Source: Planctomycetales bacterium (GTDB taxonomy: Bacteria; Planctomycetota; Phycisphaerae; SM23-33). Taken from it: a DNA stretch of 64,000 bases. A program made the translations under genes and the position numbers. Under the pieces are notes generated by a model. That model did no database searches and was not told where the DNA came from. It worked only from the letters and a program-made list of their open reading frames with translations. The stretch lies in the NCBI GenBank assembly GCA_030612725.1, contig JAUWNJ010000002.1:64542-128541 (forward strand). Reading direction: 5' to 3'. Positions 17,407 through 62,792 of the stretch are shown here, piece after piece; positions within the stretch are counted from its first letter, which is position 1; each line of letters opens with the position of its first letter.

Positions 17407-17908
17407 TTTCTATTCCTTTTTCGACCGGGCAGTAATACCGCCGGAAACACACCAGTTCTTGCGGTATCGATAAAATCTGATCTGAAATCCTGTTTTATGA
17501 AACTCAACCAACGCATACGAATTTATCATCGACTCGACTACTGTCAAAGTGGTAATTGTCGCTTTTCTTATCCACATCAAGTCAAGCCTCGCTTGCAGAG
17601 AAACTTCCGAAGCAAAGTTTTTTTTCATTCACCGGTTATGCACAAAATTTCCACGAAGCGCGACCGTGAAAAGAAAAATTAGCAGGGATGCAGGGGATAA
17701 AGAGGATAAAACATCTTTTCAAAATTCAAACAGGTGCTTTTCTTCTTATTGAAATTCGCTTTTTATCCCGTGCATCCCCTGCATCCCTGCTAATTCTTTT
17801 CCCTGTATTCCTGCTGGTTCTTGAAAATTTGTTGTTTGACAATCGCCGTTCGAAAATCGACAATTGGCAATCGACAATCGGCAATTGGCAATTGAAGGAG
17901 TTTTTACA
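17407..17908. promoter_or_regulatory. putative oriC and dnaA promoter region
   Basis: Perfect DnaA box TTATCCACA at 17568-17576 and TTATGCACA at 17636-17644, plus 7/9 variants (TTATCCTCT rc near 17702, TTATCCCGT near 17766). A perfect 22-bp inverted repeat (17677-17698 / 17774-17795) flanks the AT-rich tract. Confidence 0.6.
17838..17895. repeat. tandem CAATYGRCAAT array in the 5' leader of the 17909 gene (family also at 19125-19160 and 46461-46504)
   Basis: gacaatcgccgttcgaaaatcgacaattggcaatcgacaatcggcaattggcaattg. Confidence 0.7.
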
Positions 17909-28877: not shown

Positions 28878-29152
28878 AAATCCAAAATACGAATATCGAA
28901 ATACGAAACAAATTCGAATGACCGAATTCTCAAAATCCGAAACGAACTTGGACAACCAAAATCCAAAACGAAAGCACTATGACCTTGAAGATCGAACCTT
29001 TGAGAAAACGAGCGTGTCGCTTTGGTTCAGGAAAGCACTGAACTGATGAACATTTTCGGTTCCATCCTTCGCAAGAGCGAATGATATTTTGAACATTTGA
29101 ATTTCGTATTTCGAATTTGTTTCGTATTTCGGATTTCGATATTCGGATTTAT
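28876..29152. repeat. MITE-like palindromic element, AATCCGAAA/ATACGAAA family, copy 1 (rpe|accD)
   Basis: Left arm aatccaaaatacgaatatcgaaatacgaaacaaattcgaatgaccgaattctcaaaatccgaaacg and right arm ...ttgaatttcgtatttcgaatttgtttcgtatttcggatttcgatattcggattt are imperfect reverse complements. About 150 bp core. No ORF. Confidence 0.8.
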
Positions 29153-37490: not shown

Positions 37491-37506
37491 GCTTCTGCTC
37501 CTGTTT

Positions 37507-37549
37507 GGTAATTGGTAATTGGTAATCAGTAATTGGTAATTGGTAATCC
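37507..37549. repeat. tandem heptamer array (GGTAATT x6) in the ptsN 5' leader
   Basis: ggtaattggtaattggtaatcagtaattggtaattggtaatcc, 17 nt upstream of the ptsN ATG. Related arrays at 42240-42319 and 55186-55225. Confidence 0.75.
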
Positions 37550-40215: not shown

Positions 40216-41610
40216 CTACCCCAGTTTTCTTTTCCAGAAATTCAGTTGTTTTCGCAGTTGTTTCGCCCCGGCAGCGCCTTCGGGTTTGTAGTGTTTGACT
40301 ACGTTGTCTGCGCCGAGGTGGTCGGCAACGTCCGGGCCTATGGCCTTGTCGGCAGCACGGATGACGACCTCCGGCAGGCTCGCGAGCGTGTTGCCCGTCC
40401 GGGCTGCGTTGGCGACAAGTTCGCCGACGATTCCGTGGGCAGTGCGGAACGGCACGCCTTTATTGACCAGATATTCCGCCAGGCTCGTCGCATCGAGGAA
40501 ACCGGCGTCCAGGTCGGCGGCGATTCGCCCCGGGCAGAACCGTACCGTCGAGACGACCTTCGACGCAACGACCAAGGCTGACTTCATCGTCGAAACCGTC
40601 GCAAAGGCGAAGCGTTTGTCGTCCTGCAAGTCCCGGCTATAGCCCGACGGCAGCGATTTCATCAGCGTCAGCATCCCGCACAGGTTCCCGATTGCGCCGG
40701 CTGATTTGCCTCGGATAAGTTCCAGCGTGTCGGCGTTTTTCTTCTGCGGCATCATCGAGGACGACGTGCAGACCGAATCGTCCAGTTCGATGAAGCCGAA
40801 CTCGGTGGTCGAGTAGATAATCCAGTCTTCAGCCCATCGGCTCAGATGTACGCCGACCGTAGCCAGGCAGAAGCACAGTTCCGCCAGGAAGTCGCGGCTT
40901 GATGTCGCGTCGATGCTGTTTCGCGTTATGGCTGGAAAGCCGAGTAGTTCGGCGACGCGTTTTCGCTCCAGCGGGATGGACGTACCGGCCACAGCCCCGC
41001 TTCCGAGCGGGCAGACATTGACGCGTTTTCGGCAATCGGCCAGGCGTTCCGCGTCGCGGTCGAGCATCTCGACGTACGCAAGCATCGCGTGTCCTGCCAG
41101 GATTGGCTGGGCGCGCTGAAGGTGCGTGTAGGCGGGCATGACAATCTGCCCGTATTTATCAGCCCCGGCGACGAAGGACGTTTGCAACTGCCGGATGAGG
41201 TCTCTCATGTCGTCGATGGCGTCGCGTGCCCATAGTCGCAGATCCAGAGCGATCTGGTCGTTTCGGCTCCGTCCGGTGTGGAGTTTCCGCCCCGGTTCGC
41301 CGATGCGTTTTATCAAGGCCGATTCGATGACCATGTGGATGTCTTCGAGGGCGGGGTCGAGTTTGACCTTCCCGGCTTCGATGTCCTCGGCGATTGTCGA
41401 GAGGCCTTTTTTGATGCGGGTCAATTCCCTGCCTGTGAGGATACCGATCTCGCGGAGCATCGTCGCGTGGGCGAGCGACCCGGCGATGTCGTACTTGTAC
41501 AGGCCCGCATCCACGTCGATCGACGCCAATAGTTCGCTGGTGGCCTGGTCCGCTTCGCCGCTCAGTCGGCCATGCCATGATTTGGTTGATTTTGTCGTTT
41601 TCTTTGCCAT
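40216..41610 (-). CDS. argH: argininosuccinate lyase
   Basis: Fumarate-lyase signature GSSMMPQKKNAD and the TGRSRNDQ motif. The start is set at MAKKTTKSTKSWHGRLSG. Confidence 0.9.
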   Translation of the reverse strand: MAKKTTKSTKSWHGRLSGEADQATSELLASIDVDAGLYKYDIAGSLAHATMLREIGILTGRELTRIKKGLSTIAEDIEAGKVKLDPALEDIHMVIESALIKRIGEPGRKLHTGRSRNDQIALDLRLWARDAIDDMRDLIRQLQTSFVAGADKYGQIVMPAYTHLQRAQPILAGHAMLAYVEMLDRDAERLADCRKRVNVCPLGSGAVAGTSIPLERKRVAELLGFPAITRNSIDATSSRDFLAELCFCLATVGVHLSRWAEDWIIYSTTEFGFIELDDSVCTSSSMMPQKKNADTLELIRGKSAGAIGNLCGMLTLMKSLPSGYSRDLQDDKRFAFATVSTMKSALVVASKVVSTVRFCPGRIAADLDAGFLDATSLAEYLVNKGVPFRTAHGIVGELVANAARTGNTLASLPEVVIRAADKAIGPDVADHLGADNVVKHYKPEGAAGAKQLRKQLNFWKRKLG

Positions 41611-41747
41611 TGGATATTTCCCGCTGGAACAGTATTGTCGAAGCGCGAATGATAGCATATCCCACGTGTATCTTCCAGCCTGAAGAGAAGTTGCGAAATC
41701 GTCGCCGATGACCTATAGTATTACGCTACAAATAAGGAGCACAGACA

Positions 41748-42239
41748 ATGAGCGTGAACGAATATCAAGGCAAGTTGATCGCGCCGGCCGGTGCGAAGTT
41801 CGCCGTTATCGTCAGCCGGTTCAACGAGTTCATTACATCGAAACTGATGTCGGGTGCAATTGACGCGCTGACCCGTCACGGTGCAGGCGACAGCGACATT
41901 GACGTGGTATGGTCGCCGGGATGTTTCGAGATTCCGCTGTTATGCCGGCGTCTGGCAGAATCCGGAAAGTATGCCGGAGTGATTTGCCTGGGGGCGGTGA
42001 TTCGCGGCGGGACGGAGCATCACCGATACATCGCGTCGGAAGTTACCAAGGGAATAGCAGCCACATCTCTGGCAACCGGCCTGCCGTGCATCTTCGGCAT
42101 CCTGACCTGCGACACCATCGAGCAGGCGGTAGAGCGGGCAGGAACCAAGAGCGGAAACAAAGGCGCCGACGCAGCCATTGCCGCTATCGAAATGACTAAC
42201 CTGATGGGGCAACTGCCTGCCACGAATTCCACGAAGTAA
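41748..42239 (+). CDS. ribH: 6,7-dimethyl-8-ribityllumazine synthase
   Basis: [20 protein letters not shown]...[10 protein letters not shown]. Confidence 0.9.
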
Positions 42240-42319
42240 GTAATTCGTAATTGGTAATTCGTAATTCGTAAAAAAACCGATGCTCTGTTACCAATTACGA
42301 ATTACCAATTACGAATTAC
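42240..42319. repeat. 27-bp near-perfect inverted repeat of TAATTCGTAATTGG units between ribH and nusB
   Basis: Left arm gtaattcgtaattggtaattcgtaattcgta, loop aaaaaaaccgatgctctg, right arm ttaccaattacgaattaccaattacgaattac. Confidence 0.8.
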
Positions 42320-42346
42320 AAAATTCATGGAACGGAGTTTTTCGGA

Positions 42347-42763
42347 GTGATTGAGCACCACAAAGCAAGGCTGATGGCGATGCAGGGTCTTTGTTGCCTG
42401 GACGTTCAGGGCGATGACGGCATGGATGCAACGCTGGGATTTTTCCGCGACGGTAAGGAAAGCCTCGAAACCACCGACGAGGCGGAATGCATGATTCGCG
42501 GCGTTCTTGCCGAAAGGAACGAAATCGACGAACTCCTCAGCGGGCAAAGCCGGCACTGGAAAGTCGCTCGCATGGGGCTTCTGGAGCGAAATATCCTGCG
42601 GCTGGCTGTTTGGGAACTACTGACAACCCACACGCCGAAAAAAGTCGTCATCAACGAAGCAATTCGCCTGGCGAAGGAATTCGCCTCGGCTGAATCGTCA
42701 AAGTTCGTCAACGGCGTACTCGATGCAACAGCGGAAAGAATCACAGAGAATAGTAGTCAGTAG
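42347..42763 (+). CDS. nusB: transcription antitermination factor NusB
   Basis: NusB fold: ARLMAMQGLCCLDVQ...ERNILRLAVWEL. Confidence 0.9.
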   Translation: MIEHHKARLMAMQGLCCLDVQGDDGMDATLGFFRDGKESLETTDEAECMIRGVLAERNEIDELLSGQSRHWKVARMGLLERNILRLAVWELLTTHTPKKVVINEAIRLAKEFASAESSKFVNGVLDATAERITENSSQ

Positions 42764-42932
42764 TAAAATCCGAATATCGAAATCCGAAATCCGAAACAAT
42801 ATCGAAATACGAATGGCCAAAATTAGAAACACCATTTTCAAGTTGTCGTATAGTTTGAAACATTTGAAAATTCGGATTTTGAATTTGTTTCGGATTTCGG
42901 ATTTCGGATTTCAATATTCGGATTTAAGTACC
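42764..42932. repeat. MITE-like palindromic element, AATCCGAAA/ATACGAAA family, copy 2 (nusB|ftsY)
   Basis: Left arm aaaatccgaatatcgaaatccgaaatccgaaacaatatcgaaatacgaatggccaaaat, right arm aaaattcggattttgaatttgtttcggatttcggatttcggatttcaatattcggattt. Starts immediately after the nusB stop. Confidence 0.8.
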
Positions 42933-42965
42933 ACCTATTAAACACCACACGCGGAGCGTGAATAA

Positions 42966-43886
42966 ATGGCGTTATTCAGGAAAACAATACAGCACCTTAC
43001 CGGCGGGTTGGCGCGGACGCGGAAGAAACTTATCGGTTCGTTGCGGTCGCTGCTGGTGGGGCGAAAAATAGACGACGATCTTCTCGATGAACTTGAAGAG
43101 CAGTTAATCCTCGCCGACATCGGCGTAACCACAGCGATGAGGATACGCGAGGACCTCCAGAACGCTTACAAAGAGAAAAAACTCCAAAGCGGCGACGAGG
43201 TGATAGACTTTCTCAAGTCCGAGATGAAGCAATACTGGCCTGAGGCCGACCGGAGCATTCATTTCGCCGAAACCGGGCTGACGGTGATCCTGGTAGCCGG
43301 GGTCAACGGTACCGGAAAGACGACCTCGGTAGCCAAACTGGCGCATTTGTTCAAGTCCGAGGGTAAAAAAGTCTGTCTCGCCGCTGCCGATACGTTTCGA
43401 GCGGCGGCTGTGGAACAACTGACTATCTGGGCTGAACGCATCGGCGTCGATATAATCAAGGGTTCTCGCGGTTCCGATCCCGCTGCCGTCGCTTTCGACG
43501 CCTGCGACGCCGCCATTGCCCGCGGCGCCGACGTCCTGCTGGTCGATACTGCCGGTCGGCTTCATACGCAGGACAACCTCATGCGCGAACTGGGCAAGAT
43601 TCGCAATGTAGTCGCCCGCAAAATCTCCAACGCTCCGCACGAAGTCCTGCTGGTTCTCGACGCGACCACAGGCCAAAACGCCATCAGCCAGGCGAAAGTC
43701 TTCACCGATACGATTGACGTTACGGGTATCTTCCTGGCCAAACTTGACGGCACCGCCAGGGGGGGAATCGTCGTCGCCATTCGGGACGAACTGTCCCTGC
43801 CGGTGAAATTCGTCGGTATCGGCGAAAAATACGAAGACGTCGAACCGTTCGACCCGGAATCATTCGTCGAAGCGCTGTTTAGTTAA
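42966..43886 (+). CDS. ftsY: signal recognition particle receptor FtsY
   Basis: NG domain: [31 protein letters not shown]. Confidence 0.9.
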
Positions 43887-43914
43887 AGGAAGGGTGTAGG
43901 GCGTAGGGCGTAGG

Positions 43915-44877
43915 ATGAGTAACAAAGTCGCGTTTATTTCTGATCCGGCGTATCTCGAACACCATACCGGTCTGGGGCATCCCGAATCGCCGCAACGTCT
44001 GGCGGCAATATGGGGAAAACTCGACGACGAGGGGCTTTGGGATGAACTGACACACATCGAACCGGTTCCCGCGAGCGTTGACGACTTGCTGATGGTGCAC
44101 GGGGGCGATTACATCGAACAAGTCCGGCAGGATGTCGAAGACGGGCGAACGATGCTTTCAACCGGTGATACGAATATCTGTCCGAAATCGTACGAAATCG
44201 CGATTCTGGCTGTCGGTGGGGCGATACGGGCTGTCGATACCGTTTGCAACGGCAAAGTCAATTCGGCCTTCTGTGCGGTCCGCCCGCCGGGGCATCATGC
44301 AACTGCCAACGCCGGCATGGGATTCTGCATCTTCAACAACGCTGCAATCGCCGCTCGATATGCACAGAAAAACTGCGGCATTGAGCGGGTTCTCATAGTT
44401 GATTGGGACGTCCACCACGGAAACGGGACGCAGGAGATTTTCTATGACGATCCGTCCGTTTTCTACTTCTCGACGCATCAGTTCGGTACCTATCCAATGC
44501 CGATGACAGGTTTGGGCTACGACGGTCAGAGAGGCAGCCACAGTGGCGGGGGGGCCAATATCAATTGTCCGCTCCCGATGGGGGCGGGAGATGATGAAAT
44601 CATCGCAGCCTTTACAGAGCGTCTCGTCCCAGCCATGGCGGAATTCTCGCCGGAACTGGTGATTATCTCTGCCGGTTTCGATTGCATCGCCAGCGACCCG
44701 ATCGGCGGCTTGGGTGTTACGGACGACGGTATCGCAGCCTTGACGAAAATCGTCATGGAAATCGCCGCCGCTTCAGCCAACGGGCGAATTGTCTCACTTC
44801 TGGAAGGCGGATACGACCTGTCCGGCCTGGCGTCGGCGGTGAACACGCATATACGAACGATGATGAAAGAGAGGTGA
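43915..44877 (+). CDS. histone deacetylase family protein (acetoin utilization AcuC-like)
   Basis: HDAC motifs: RPPGHHA, DWDVHHGNGTQ, GGYDL. Confidence 0.85.
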   Translation: MSNKVAFISDPAYLEHHTGLGHPESPQRLAAIWGKLDDEGLWDELTHIEPVPASVDDLLMVHGGDYIEQVRQDVEDGRTMLSTGDTNICPKSYEIAILAVGGAIRAVDTVCNGKVNSAFCAVRPPGHHATANAGMGFCIFNNAAIAARYAQKNCGIERVLIVDWDVHHGNGTQEIFYDDPSVFYFSTHQFGTYPMPMTGLGYDGQRGSHSGGGANINCPLPMGAGDDEIIAAFTERLVPAMAEFSPELVIISAGFDCIASDPIGGLGVTDDGIAALTKIVMEIAAASANGRIVSLLEGGYDLSGLASAVNTHIRTMMKER

Positions 44878-46029: not shown

Positions 46030-46455
46030 CTAATCCTCGGACGGTGAAACCGCTCCGCGCGTGCGTTTGGTATCGCTCCGGCGGTGCTTGGTTTCCAGAC
46101 GGCGTTTCTTCGATGCGAGTGTCGGCTTGGTCTTTCGGCGGGGTTTGGGCTTTTTGACGGCCTTGCGGATAAGTTCAATCAATCGACCGCGTGCATCCTG
46201 GCGATTGCGTTGCTGTGTGCGGTATCGCCGGGCCTCGATAATCAATACGCCGTCGGTTGTCATCCGCCGACCTGCAAGGCGAATCAGTCGCTCGCGTACA
46301 TCGTCGGGCAGGGAGGCCGAGTTGGTTACGTCGAAGCGGAGTTGCACTGCCGTTGCGACCTTGTTGACATTCTGCCCCCCAGGCCCGGAAGCGCGAATAA
46401 ACTCCTCCCGAATCTCCCCCTCGTCAATCGAAATGGTGCGTGTTATGTGAATCAT
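46030..46455 (-). CDS. arfB: alternative ribosome rescue factor ArfB (peptidyl-tRNA hydrolase)
   Basis: GGQ motif (SGPGGQNVNKV) and a basic C-terminal tail. Confidence 0.85.
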   Translation of the reverse strand: MIHITRTISIDEGEIREEFIRASGPGGQNVNKVATAVQLRFDVTNSASLPDDVRERLIRLAGRRMTTDGVLIIEARRYRTQQRNRQDARGRLIELIRKAVKKPKPRRKTKPTLASKKRRLETKHRRSDTKRTRGAVSPSED

Positions 46456-46504
46456 GTCTTCAATTTCTTTTCAATTGGCAATTGAAAATCGGCAATTGGC
46501 AATC

Positions 46505-52386: not shown

Positions 52387-53256
52387 TTACCTCGAAAAGG
52401 TGGCTCGCCCTTTTTCTGCGCCGTGATTCTTTCGCCCGGGTCGAAGTATCAGCGTAAAGCCGCCGACAGTGATGATAACCAGCGTCCCCGGTTCGGGAAT
52501 CTGCTGCATTATCCATCCTGAATACGCGCTGACCCTGACGTCGTACCCCCTGTCGCCGTATTCAGGGTAAATTGAGTCGCCGTCAAAGTTCGTGATTCCG
52601 ACGTGGATTCCGACGATCTTCAGCCCGCCTGCTTCGGCGACAAAAGAAGGTCCGCCGGAATCGCCTTTCGCTATCATGGACTCGGTTGTTCCTTCGGGCG
52701 GACTTCCCCCTCCGTCGGCGGGTTCGTCGAAATCGAACATAAGGAAGCCGGAGATGGTACTGTCAATCCGATTTCCACCATAGCGTCCGGTTCCCCTTGG
52801 GTATTGACCCGGTTCGGGCATACCGGTTCCACTCTCGCCGAATCCGACGATAATGATCTCGCTGCCAAGTTCGTTCGTCCGGGAATTAACCTGGTATCCG
52901 GGCAGGCCGGTGCTCCTGTCCAGACGGACGACGGCAAGGTCTTTATAGGGGTGAACATATTTCTCGACCAGGCTGAACGTTTCGGAGCCGGAGGCGGTGT
53001 ACAACGTGAAGGTATGTCCGGAAATATTTTCAACGGCATGTTTCGCGGTCAGAATGTGAACCGGACTGATCAGTACGCCGGTCGTTCCCCCAGCCGAGGA
53101 AAGATACCCGACGCCTTCCAGCCCGGGCATCAAGTCGTACCGGTGATAGGCAGGGTCGTCGCAAACTACAATGGCCGACGAATGAGCGGGAAATGCACAA
53201 ATCACCGCGAGGAACGCCAGGGTTCCGCAAATCCATGGGTATAAATCGCTTCTCAT
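52387..53256 (-). CDS. trypsin-like (S1) serine protease with PEP-CTERM anchor
   Basis: Catalytic triad context TAKHAV (His), GDSGGP (Ser), and a C-terminal IPEPGTLVIITVGGFTLIL. Confidence 0.8.
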   Translation of the reverse strand: MRSDLYPWICGTLAFLAVICAFPAHSSAIVVCDDPAYHRYDLMPGLEGVGYLSSAGGTTGVLISPVHILTAKHAVENISGHTFTLYTASGSETFSLVEKYVHPYKDLAVVRLDRSTGLPGYQVNSRTNELGSEIIIVGFGESGTGMPEPGQYPRGTGRYGGNRIDSTISGFLMFDFDEPADGGGSPPEGTTESMIAKGDSGGPSFVAEAGGLKIVGIHVGITNFDGDSIYPEYGDRGYDVRVSAYSGWIMQQIPEPGTLVIITVGGFTLILRPGRKNHGAEKGRATFSR

Positions 53257-53387
53257 TTTCTAAACCTCCGGGGGCCTTGAAGCCTGATTACTCCGACAGT
53301 ACCGGGCTTATGGGTATATCGGCAGTAGAGGAGGGTCAGTTTGCTAACAGTTGGTACATAAAATGGGGGCAGGCCACCTTGATCGCG

Positions 53388-53531
53388 CTGTGTTCGCGTT
53401 TGCGCGCGCAAACGCGAACGTAAAAATCGGAGGAAATGAAAATTCCAAAAAAACTTTTCCCAAGGCCACCAAGGACTTATGGCGTCGCTATCCGTTTTGT
53501 GTTCGCGTTTGCGCGCGCAAACGCGAACGCA
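53388..53531. promoter_or_regulatory. two copies of a 33-bp direct repeat, each containing a perfect 28-bp palindrome, upstream of the PEP-CTERM protease gene
   Basis: gttcgcgtttgcgcgcgcaaacgcgaac at 53392-53419 and 53501-53528, 109 bp apart. They lie 136 and 245 nt upstream of the protease start. Confidence 0.6.
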
Positions 53532-53711
53532 AAAGTTAATACGGAGAGAATAGGGACTAGGGACTTGGGACTAGGGACTTGGAAAAAAGAAACAGATGGG
53601 CCGTTTAGGCAAGATGGGCAAAATAGGCAATGGCGGATTTTTTAAAATGGGCGTAAAAATGACACTAAAATACGCAAATCTATGCACGCCAAGGAGTTAT
53701 GGGTTTTGCAA

Positions 53712-53820
53712 TTTTTCCCAATTGTTCCGAATCGTTCCCAATCGTTCCGAATCGTTCCCAATCGTTCCCAATCGTTCCCAATTGTTCCGAATTGTTCCGT
53801 TTCGTTCCGTTTCGTTCCAC
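53712..53820. repeat. tandem array of about 11 copies of the 10-mer ATCGTTCCCA (variants ATTGTTCCGA, TTCGTTCCGT)
   Basis: Unit boundaries were read directly from the sequence. No spacers, so this is not CRISPR-like. Confidence 0.85.
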
Positions 53821-56325: not shown

Positions 56326-56456
56326 GCGAAATACGAATATCGAAATCCGAATGTTCAAAACATCTACGGTAAGACCTGCCGGACGGTGTTTTGGAGATTC
56401 AAATTTGGGTCATTTGATATTGTTTTGAATTTCGAGATTCGGATTTCGGATTTAAA
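56326..56456. repeat. MITE-like palindromic element, AATCCGAAA/ATACGAAA family, copy 3 (mreC|mreD)
   Basis: Left arm gcgaaatacgaatatcgaaatccgaatgttcaaaacat, right arm atattgttttgaatttcgagattcggatttcggattt. Confidence 0.75.
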
Positions 56457-59018: not shown

Positions 59019-59036
59019 ATGAAATCATTACGCAAA

Positions 59037-59200
59037 ATTCGAATATCGAAATCCGAAATTCGAAACAATATCGAAATACAAATGACCAAAATCCGAAACA
59101 TAAATACACAAACATTTTCAATGTTCTGTGTTTGGGACATTAGAAAATTCGGATTTTGAATTTGTTTCGTATTTCGAGATTCGTATTTCGGATTTAAAAA
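59037..59200. repeat. MITE-like palindromic element, AATCCGAAA/ATACGAAA family, copy 4 (mrdA|rodA)
   Basis: Left arm aaattcgaatatcgaaatccgaaattcgaaacaatatcgaaatacaaatgaccaaaatccgaaac, right arm aaaattcggattttgaatttgtttcgtatttcgagattcgtatttcggattt. Internal hairpin aacatt-ttc-aatgtt. Confidence 0.8.
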
Positions 59201-62088: not shown

Positions 62089-62700
62089 AAAGAAGAAGAA
62101 AAGGAATAGCAGGATTACAGGGATTACCGGATTACAGGGATTTTTATTTTTGCTGAAAAAAGAAGAGGAAAAAGAAAGGCAGGGGGATTGCAGGGATTGG
62201 TTTTAATTCTCAAATCTTCTTACTTGCAAAGAAGACGAGCCGAAATTTATCAGCAGCGCAACCAGCAACCTGGAGGCTTTTAAGTAACTGATAGTCTGTG
62301 CTCGGTGCTCCTTAATCGTATCGACAACGGCCTTCAGTTCGACAATAACCTTTCCTTCAACAACCATGTCAGGCCTGTATGTACCACAAAGCATTCCCTC
62401 GTAAAAAACTTCGAATTCACGCTGTGACTCAAATGAAATTCCTGTGAGCATCAATTCCTTGGAAAGCGCTTTGTGATATGTCGATTCGGTGAAACCGGCG
62501 CCAAGCGTTCCGTGAACTTCATGAGCGGCCCCGATAATGTTATAAGTAAGTGCGTTAATGGGATCGTCAGCGTCCAAACCACCCCGAACACCAACAACAC
62601 CCCCGACTTCTTTTTCTGTTTCTTTTGTTCCTTTTAACAAAATAAAAATCCCTGTAATCCGGTAATCCCTGTAATCCTGCTATTCCTTTTCTTCTTCTTT
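62089..62700. mobile_element. cassette: GxxExxY gene bounded by a perfect 62-bp inverted repeat, abutting the 3' end of tRNA-Ser
   Basis: IR-L at 62089-62150 is exactly the reverse complement of IR-R at 62639-62700 (aaagaagaagaaaaggaatagcaggattacagggattaccggattacagggatttttatttt). Extra GGGATTG/CAGGGATTGG motifs at 62071-62086 and 62180-62199. Confidence 0.7.
62203..62640 (-). CDS. GxxExxY family protein (PD-(D/E)XK-like)
   Basis: YNIIGAAHEVHGTLGAGFTESTYHKAL (the GxxExxY motif), then ...VELKAV...LINFG. TTG start immediately adjacent to IR-R. Confidence 0.85.
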   Translation of the reverse strand: MLKGTKETEKEVGGVVGVRGGLDADDPINALTYNIIGAAHEVHGTLGAGFTESTYHKALSKELMLTGISFESQREFEVFYEGMLCGTYRPDMVVEGKVIVELKAVVDTIKEHRAQTISYLKASRLLVALLINFGSSSLQVRRFEN

Positions 62701-62707
62701 TCTTTAA

Positions 62708-62792
<85 letters not shown>

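Follow-up and report, generated by a model that had tools for sequence, protein, structure and literature searches.

Organization of the nusB-ftsY region

The object of this study is a long hairpin element located between nusB and ftsY on a contig of a Planctomycetales bacterium (assembly GCA_030612725.1, contig JAUWNJ010000002.1, positions 64,542 to 128,541 of the forward strand). The whole stretch of 64,000 nt is referred to as the window and its coordinates are used throughout, the loci labelled L being located on other contigs. The element is the second of four copies of a dispersed family with arms built of AAATCCG-type heptamers (the AAATCCG family). The genes and the parts of the element are as follows (ORF, open reading frame).

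41748-42239, + strand: ribH (TIGR00114, E 7e-51)
42347-42763, + strand: nusB, the upstream gene (TIGR01951, E 8e-35)
42764-42932, + strand: copy 2, a whole ORF-less cassette of the AAATCCG family, oriented by its ORF remnants
42766-42799, + strand: left arm, AAATCCG AATATCG AAATCCG AAATCCG followed by AAACAA
42813-42823, + strand: ATGGCCAAAAT, remnant of the start and first codons of a four-helix-bundle ORF, in the inner left arm (alignment A2)
42833-42839, + strand: CATTTTC, perhaps left over from the ..MNIFG.. codons close to the 3' end of the ORF (a weak match of 7 nt)
42885-42925, + strand: right arm, TTGTTT followed by CGGATTT (three times), CAATATT and CGGATTT
42966-43886, + strand: ftsY, the downstream gene (TIGR00064, E 2e-106), with a start, ATGGCG, that is kept in relatives

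The nusB stop codon TAG (42761-42763) abuts the 169-bp element, which opens with TAAAATCCG at 42764. The initial annotation, which had placed the start of the element right after this stop codon and let it fill the spacer, was correct on both points; the end "about 30 nt" before ftsY was a rough estimate of what we measure as 34-41 nt to the ATG at 42966. Beyond the arms a weaker outer pairing extends to about 42932-42940. Since the right arm has one heptamer more than the left, the stem contains a 7-nt bulge, which separates a 12-bp from a 22-bp helix and is followed by shorter inner helices. The fold of 42764-42932 comprises 60 pairs, four of them G.U, so that the hairpin of roughly 55 bp foreseen for a read-through transcript was a fair description. 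For RNA 42755-42945 the minimum free energy was -64.5 kcal/mol as compared with -33.2 +/- 4.1 for 200 shuffled sequences (z -7.64), none of which folded as well.

Copy 2 is a gene-less member of a dispersed cassette family

The motif AATCCGAAA was found 12 times in the window against 1.27 occurrences expected, a number reached in 0 of 100 shuffles, which bears out the earlier assignment of the element to a dispersed family. Four copies are present per 64 kb, and besides copy 2 these are:

28878-29150, + strand: copy 1, an internally deleted cassette of 273 bp between rpe and accD
56326-56453, + strand: copy 3, ORF-less and the most degraded
59034-59195, + strand: copy 4, ORF-less, with the same deletion junction as copy 2

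In alignment A2 the family appears in three states: full length in the metagenomic elements L181 and L143, internally deleted in copy 1, and gene-less in copies 2 and 4 and in the copy of the related contig L002. The gene-less state consists of both arms, ATGRCCAAAAT, CATTTTC and the inner arm that follows the ORF, and copy 2 aligns end to end with L181 and L143 save for the deleted gene. The ATGGCCAAAAT of copy 2 corresponds to ATGACAAAAAGCC in L181 and ATGACCAAAAT in copy 4, and its CATTTTC aligns with AACATTTTCGG of copy 1 and L181; the CATTTTC positions (columns 182-188 of alignment A1) are near-invariant in all four window copies. Copy 2 is therefore a gene-less miniature of a palindromic cassette family that carries a four-helix-bundle gene, and its gene has been lost between the first and the last codons. 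Identity of copy 2 to copy 4 amounts to 92% over aligned bases, loop included, and to the L002 copy to about 93% in the non-repetitive parts. The deletion junction common to copies 2 and 4 implies that the gene-less form itself was duplicated in this genome, rather than having decayed separately at each site.

The intermediate state is documented by copy 1. Its 5' gene part, from the ATG at 28918, encodes MTEFSKSETNLDNQNPKRKHYDLEDRTFEK.., and its 3' part (29043-29084) encodes ..ELMNIFGSILRKSE followed by a stop codon; translation gives ..KHYDLEDRTFEK.. in one frame and ..ELMNIFGSILRKSE with the stop in another, and the remnants include ..KHYDLEDRTFE... The protein of L181 ends in ..ELMNIFGSILRKSE, the same 14 residues; its identity to the C-terminal piece of copy 1 is 77% across the final 26 residues (E 2e-11), and the match of the N-terminal piece is weak. 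Searches of Pfam, NCBIfam and PDB with the concatenated 50-aa remnant of copy 1 returned nothing, and the link to the protein family runs through the full-length elements.

Full-length relatives in metagenomes

A scan of metagenomic contigs with the arm motif GAWWTTGTTTCGKATTTCG yielded at least 120 loci from many environments. Among the matches listed most are short hairpins like copy 2, and 45 are well-formed elements with four heptamers and AAACAA at one end and TTGTTT and four heptamers at the other. The arms of these 45 nearly always contain four AAnnnCG heptamers and AAACAA, the termini are AAATYCG...CGRATTT, and the gene is absent in about 90% of them. Full-length members are about 470-560 bp long and are composed of a left arm, an inner arm with the start codon, a gene of about 120 codons and a mirror-image right arm; the ATG lies in the inner left arm (TTCAAATGAC), which pairs with GTCATTTGAA located right after the stop codon.

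In four loci (L181, L143, L142 and L176) an ORF of about 120 aa is enclosed by ends of the AAATCCG family, and all four products match TIGR02436, "four helix bundle protein" (E 5e-16 to 3e-19). The two that were scanned against Pfam, L181 and L143, match PF05635, "23S rRNA-intervening sequence protein" (E 3e-11 and 7e-10), and the L181 protein matches the five-chain PDB entry 2rld (E 8e-12). No consistent direct repeat that would mark a target-site duplication or a conserved flank was seen around the 45 elements, and no transposase family was matched in the full-length ones, the parent encoding the four-helix-bundle protein. PADLOC assigned the four-helix-bundle, GxxExxY and NOV_C proteins to no defence system. 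Orienting the ORF-less metagenomic copies against copy 4 was tried and given up, as the inner regions are palindromic and the loops unrelated.

Several metagenomic loci have a more complex structure. In L142 (397-1990) a four-helix-bundle cassette stands beside a GxxExxY cassette between histidine-kinase and response-regulator genes, and in L176 (295-1195) a single pair of arms encloses the four-helix-bundle ORF together with an ORF for a NOV_C-domain (PF13020) protein. The interior of the AAATCCG-family element in L101 (13545-13832) is a second near-perfect palindrome with arms of about 100 bp and a fold of about -244 kcal/mol. Short AAATCCG-family elements occur in L112 (4110-5279) on both sides of a putative endonuclease III-like (nth-like) gene, identified by reading its translation.

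Turnover of the element in related genomes

The window belongs to a Planctomycetota metagenome-assembled genome (MAG) of the Phycisphaerae/Sedimentisphaerales type. The relatives compared are Phycisphaerae-like MAGs or contigs, and their nusB-ftsY spacers, in part with the flanking genes, contain:

L002 (98% FtsY identity): AAATCCG type upstream of ftsY
L003 (94% FtsY identity; 88-91% nucleotide identity in the genes flanking the spacer): a AGCAGGGAT-type hairpin, by which the last nusB codons are rewritten
L005, L006, L007: other heptamer hairpins
L008 (676 nt): a full GxxExxY cassette (phmmer E 4e-23)
L009 (589 nt): a full GxxExxY cassette (phmmer E 1e-24)
L012: a different hairpin
L015: a different hairpin
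L010, L013: nothing obvious

A relative with 94% FtsY identity thus holds a different cassette family at the same place, and hence the element between nusB and ftsY is a product of insertion or turnover and not a conserved spacer. All five array-bearing spacers that the window has in common with L002 or L003 differ in content, which means that the elements are replaced far more rapidly than the genes around them. The neighbouring genes are affected as well: nusB reads into the element in L003 and L005, and in L008, L009 and L012 it stops at the TAG contained in the cassette terminus TAGCAGG. The cassettes thereby change the C-terminal and stop codons of adjacent genes, as in nusB of L003 and L005. 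The Logan contig L001, which carries the present nusB, ends 32 nt into copy 2, as expected at a repeat; repeats of this family break short-read assemblies.

Around the AAATCCG arms there is a weak outer inverted repeat, TAGTAGTCAGTAGTA / TTAAGTACCACCTATTA, at 42751-42765 and 42926-42940 of the window, where the last nusB codons fall within it, and at 124-136 and 288-305 of L002. Speculatively, the present element may have been inserted into an older TAGCAGG-type cassette, of which this repeat would be a relic. The sequence to the left of the element in L002 (1-123) matches neither nusB nor anything in the window, and is explained either by rearrangement at the repeat or by chimeric assembly of the contig end in this MAG. 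Outside copy 2 a small hairpin, CACGC-GGA-GCGTG (42948-42960, + strand), presents in its loop GGAG, the likely Shine-Dalgarno sequence of ftsY; L002 shares this hairpin and L003 does not.

The ribH-nusB hairpin and the wider class of heptamer-armed cassettes

A second hairpin separates ribH from nusB. Together with the one intact cassette of a sister type in the window it can be listed as follows:

42227-42332, + strand: ribH-nusB hairpin, core arms 42240-42271 and 42288-42319, built of GTAATTC heptamers (4.6 units)
62089-62700, - strand: intact GxxExxY / PD-(D/E)XK cassette with 94-nt inverted arms of GGATTACAG-type 9-mers

The 27-bp inverted repeat reported earlier for the ribH-nusB spacer is a perfect 27-bp helix (-46 kcal/mol, z -10). 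Its description as unrelated to the hairpin of copy 2 holds for the sequences, which differ, but not for the kind of structure, since both have arms of four to five tandem heptamers. The same arms and loop recur in L003 (141-235), which makes the ribH-nusB hairpin a member of another dispersed family with this type of architecture. At the site in the window that corresponds to L003 141-235, a one-armed array of six TTGGTAA heptamers is present (37505-37548). The hairpin was not found at the ribH-nusB junction of any relative examined. The ribH-nusB spacer measures 107 nt in the window, at most about 30 nt in close relatives, with no spacer at all in L003, and 211 nt in L013, the most distant one. 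An insertion of 107 nt upstream of nusB is evidently tolerated. Neither this lineage-specific insertion nor the four-helix-bundle-cassette origin of copy 2 had been recognized in the initial annotation.

Other four-helix-bundle ORFs are directly flanked by inverted tandem repeats of different sequence: TTCTAAC in L095, ACCTAAAT in L129 and GAAAAGT in L121. ORFs of the GxxExxY type (PD-(D/E)XK, TIGR04256) show the same layout, with CACGAAGG repeats in L142 and with arms that start TTAGCAGGGATGAAC in L008 and L009. The GxxExxY ORF of the window (62203-62640) matches PF13366 (E 2e-37) and TIGR04256 (E 1e-38), and its cassette follows a tRNA gene of the same strand (62708-62792, minus strand) at a distance of 8 nt. 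About 15 further tandem-heptamer arrays or hairpins were found in the window, nearly all of them in spacers. Hairpins of the AGCAGGGAT type (window 17674-17798, L003 5852-5989) have the terminus TAGCAGG(G)AT in common with full GxxExxY cassettes and look like the gene-less form of that cassette type.

Some arrays stand next to other small genes. The ftsY-deacetylase spacer of the window contains a solo array of three GTAGGGC units (43891-43914); in L002 (1250-1490) the same array is followed by a HicB-like ORF and in L003 (6951-7387) by HicB and HicA. An insertion of 833 bp in L002 (6209-7042), with an ORF for a 212-aa zinc-ribbon/membrane-like protein, lies between a CACAGAG-heptamer hairpin and an inverted CTCTGTG array, and the corresponding site of the window (46455-46502) has a CAATTGG array only. 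As the evidence for flanking arrays is partial, we do not assign to the same class the insertions of small genes (HicAB, GNAT and others) found in spacers of L002 and L003. In or near the spacer 53256-53596 there are two repeats unlike the heptamer hairpins in style, a 10-mer tandem array of TTCCCAATCG (8-10 units, 53715-53818) and a 37-nt G+C-rich inverted repeat, GTTCGCGTTTGCGCGCGCAAACGCGAAC (53389-53531).

Proposed fate of the element in the transcript

The region 41600-44000 was scanned for transcription signals. No terminator-like site was found on the + strand, and promoter-like sites around nusB-ftsY did not exceed chance level. Intrinsic terminators have a short G+C-rich stem followed by a U-tract; the stem of copy 2 is A/U-rich and its right arm is followed by AAGTACC, not by a U-run. 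The suggestion that the hairpins of this region might be terminators only is thus not upheld, as they have no U-tract or G+C-rich stem. Rfam gave no match at the gathering score, and at relaxed thresholds returned generic long microRNA-precursor hairpins far below their cut-offs. Wherever orientation could be judged (11 of 11 cases), the gene of a cassette ran in the same direction as the host gene or tRNA gene upstream of it, an indication of read-through transcription; in L008 and L009 a complete cassette gene within the nusB-ftsY spacer faces in the nusB-ftsY direction. Taken together, the lack of a + strand terminator, the uniform co-orientation and the direction of the L008 and L009 genes indirectly favour co-transcription of nusB and ftsY.

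We consider it probable that the nusB-ftsY hairpin is a gene-less cassette copy that is carried in the read-through transcript and processed by RNase III. The cassette would be carried passively; its arms would pair in the RNA as the 12-bp and 22-bp helices plus the inner helices, and the stem would most likely be cut by RNase III, as is the heptamer-containing stem of the IVS (intervening sequence) found in Coxiella 23S ribosomal RNA (rRNA). Such a cut would remove the insert and separate the nusB and ftsY messages with no termination of transcription. The element would then be tolerated selfish DNA, rendered harmless in operons by its hairpin, and not a device evolved for the regulation of nusB or ftsY. 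RNase III processing is proposed because the Coxiella IVS has the same structure, and Correia elements offer a precedent. Elements known from rRNA are also present between ordinary genes in this planctomycete lineage.

Several observations weigh against read-through and RNase III processing as the explanation of the hairpin. Among 34 elements no compensatory changes between the arms were detected (covariation score 0.041 vs 0.083), and 84.8% of cells are paired, a value lower than in any of 500 shuffles (88.1 +/- 0.5). A second statistic of arm pairing likewise showed complementarity to be lower within elements than between them; pairing is therefore not kept by selection base by base. Most elements have mismatched 3x3 loops at their second and third heptamers, and the stem of many family members is more interrupted than that of copy 2. 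The sense strand is not enriched in G.U pairs (about 112 sense vs 130 antisense in co-directional contexts, with calls of the flanking genes that are crude and partly wrong, e.g. in L181), and the four window copies show little difference between strands. No element lies in an rRNA gene, and there is no rRNA in the window or in nine cassette-bearing loci. The elements examined show neither a target-site duplication nor a recognizable transposase that would account for their mobility.

The low pairing has a likely source in a fixed polarity of the arms. In alignment A3 (34 elements, from L083-L199 and at window 59035) the arms of an element consistently depart from mirror symmetry, 21 of the 34 elements having AAGCACG as the second heptamer of one arm and AATATCG as the third of the other. 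The two conserved 3x3 loops that result fit recognition of a structured site by a protein, at the level of RNA or DNA, better than selection for a perfect helix.

Alternative explanations

It is unlikely, in our estimation, that the hairpin serves the host, either by terminating or attenuating transcription after nusB or by stabilizing the 3' end of the ribH-nusB message like the repetitive extragenic palindromic (REP) sequences, with ftsY transcribed from its own promoter. In about 10 of 13 related genomes the nusB-ftsY spacer is occupied by a hairpin or cassette of some sort, as if a structure could be needed there, the copy 2 hairpin is very stable, and REP and ERIC elements are known to stabilize or destabilize upstream mRNA (PMC10969869). 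Against such a role stand the A/U-rich stem without a following U-tract or a + strand terminator call, the presence of the same families in many unrelated spacers, and the two relatives (L010 and L013) that have no obvious structure at this place. Moreover, an equivalent hairpin interrupts the normally tight ribH-nusB junction in this genome only, and the cassette genes of L008 and L009 face as required for read-through.

Somewhat less likely still is that the element acts as a site in DNA, the RNA hairpin being incidental. A recombinase or transposase might recognize the single-stranded or cruciform hairpin, as happens with attC sites or IS200/IS605-REP ends, or the heptamers could bind the pentameric four-helix-bundle protein. 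The absence of a G.U strand bias would agree with this, as would the GCA triplet of the second heptamer and the TAT triplet of the third in the other arm, which stay unpaired in 21 of 34 elements; conserved unpaired triplets occur in sites of structure-specific DNA enzymes, and the lack of target-site duplication is typical also of HUH-type elements. The nearly constant four heptamers plus one degenerate unit per arm could be set beside a homopentameric protein family (PMC4990558; five chains in 2rld). Nevertheless none of the cassettes examined has a recombinase or transposase associated with it, reading of the sequence by eye shows no attC R/L boxes, and the strict co-orientation with host transcription is a feature of the transcript level, although both levels could act together.

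A more far-reaching version of the transcript-borne cassette is, to our mind, doubtful. According to it the IVSs of rRNA would be just a minority, resident in rRNA, among a much larger class of cassettes embedded in transcripts and laid out as four to five tandem heptamers, a small gene (four-helix bundle, GxxExxY nuclease or others) and inverted heptamers. The pentameric four-helix-bundle protein would recognize the five-unit heptamer arms both of the cassette that encodes it and of gene-less copies, one unit per subunit, and so promote copying or control RNase III processing, and the conserved asymmetric unpaired triplets would mark polarity. If this were true, the gene-less nusB-ftsY copy would be a target in trans for proteins made by full-length copies elsewhere in the genome.

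Finally, it is extremely improbable that no element exists and that the hairpin arose locally in an A+T-rich spacer, by slippage of heptamers and fortuitous low-complexity symmetry: the arms are indeed tandem heptamers of unequal copy number, and heptamer number varies among Coxiella strains (PMC4990558), but the motif is roughly tenfold above shuffles, the inner arms, loop and ORF remnants are about 92% identical to copy 4 and 93% to L002, and in alignment A2 the non-repetitive parts are also common to full-length elements from unrelated metagenomes, which refutes slippage.

Significance of the nusB-ftsY element

Genes of the PF05635/TIGR02436 family are multi-copy in some genomes. They occur in rRNA IVSs and their function is uncharacterized (PMC4990558, PMC11270868); the origin, mobility and function of 23S IVSs and of the S23p gene have been questions since about 1990 (PMC4990558). 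The literature consulted, in which subscription journals were thinly covered so that an earlier description is possible, contained no account of heptamer-armed four-helix-bundle cassettes outside rRNA, and none of gene-less miniatures, turnover in operon spacers or abundance in Planctomycetota. The loci described here place the IVS architecture and gene family between ordinary genes, with abundant gene-less copies and rapid turnover among genomes of about 90% identity. They amount to a large natural collection of insertion sites, cassette orientations, intermediates of decay and asymmetric arms, from which movement and tolerance in operons may be approached.

Comparison with known elements

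The cyanobacterial STRR sequences and the TAACTGA repeats of Beggiatoaceae and Bacteroidetes (PMC4679880) resemble the window family as intergenic arrays of 2-6 or more direct heptamers located near gene ends and with a patchy phylogenetic spread. They form direct arrays only (in BOGUAY 169 direct sets vs one indirect) and have no cargo gene, whereas the arrays of the window family are inverted pairs around a gene or its remnant. Integron attC sites are likewise imperfect palindromes of variable sequence and conserved architecture, with conserved unpaired positions, and bound small promoterless cassettes. In contrast to them the present cassettes stand singly between housekeeping genes, with no R''/L''/L'/R' boxes, integrase or contiguous array; reading by eye revealed no attC core (R'' RYYYAAC or R' GTTRRRY) at the element ends.

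REP/BIME elements with their RAYT proteins (PMC3733652) are also extragenic palindromes that follow stop codons closely, lie between co-directional or convergent genes and make no target duplication. They are 20-40 bp long, have a GTAG or CGTC head and are linked to RAYT, whereas copy 2, with 169 bp, heptamer arms, the termini AAATCCG...CGGATTT and no such head, does not fit them in length or ends. No RAYT was seen, a genome-wide search not having been made.

Correia elements make a TA target duplication. Like other MITEs (miniature transposable elements with inverted repeats), the Correia (NEMIS) sequences of Neisseria share with copy 2 a size of 100-170 bp, the lack of coding capacity, terminal inverted repeats, many intergenic copies and frequent co-transcription, copy 2 being a 169-bp non-coding sequence with four copies in 64 kb and at least 120 metagenomic loci. 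Correia hairpins are co-transcribed RNase III substrates (PMC2649163, PMC10969869) and carry an IHF site and outward promoters (PMC2649163). Unlike the window family they have no tandem-heptamer arms; conversely, the target-site duplication and transposase-encoding parent that define MITEs are both missing here, no duplication being seen and the parent encoding a four-helix-bundle protein.

The closest relatives are the 23S rRNA IVSs of Coxiella burnetii and Leptospira (PMC4990558). In C. burnetii the terminal repeats of the IVS form a 28-bp stem, tandem GACAGAT heptamers of variable number stand just upstream of the S23p ORF, this ORF is in decay (one strain has lost 176 bp of it by deletion), and the IVS is excised by RNase III, which cuts at the first heptamer (PMC4990558). 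IVSs and window elements have in common the long inverted-repeat stem, the variable heptamers by the ORF start, the PF05635/TIGR02436 gene in the loop, decay by internal deletion, and a position within, and co-oriented with, a host transcript. Copy 2 itself has the terminal inverted repeats that make a long stem and retains remnants of the loop gene only; the gene is present in L181, L143, L142 and L176 and in part in copy 1. The window copies differ from IVSs in lying in protein-gene spacers and not within the 23S rRNA gene (helix 25 or 45), in being multi-copy, dispersed and mostly ORF-less, and in heptamer sequence and arm length; RNase III excision, which in IVSs takes place from the precursor RNA and with no religation, has been demonstrated for the IVS and is proposed by analogy for the window element. 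The window elements nonetheless share every structural feature of the Coxiella IVS except its location.

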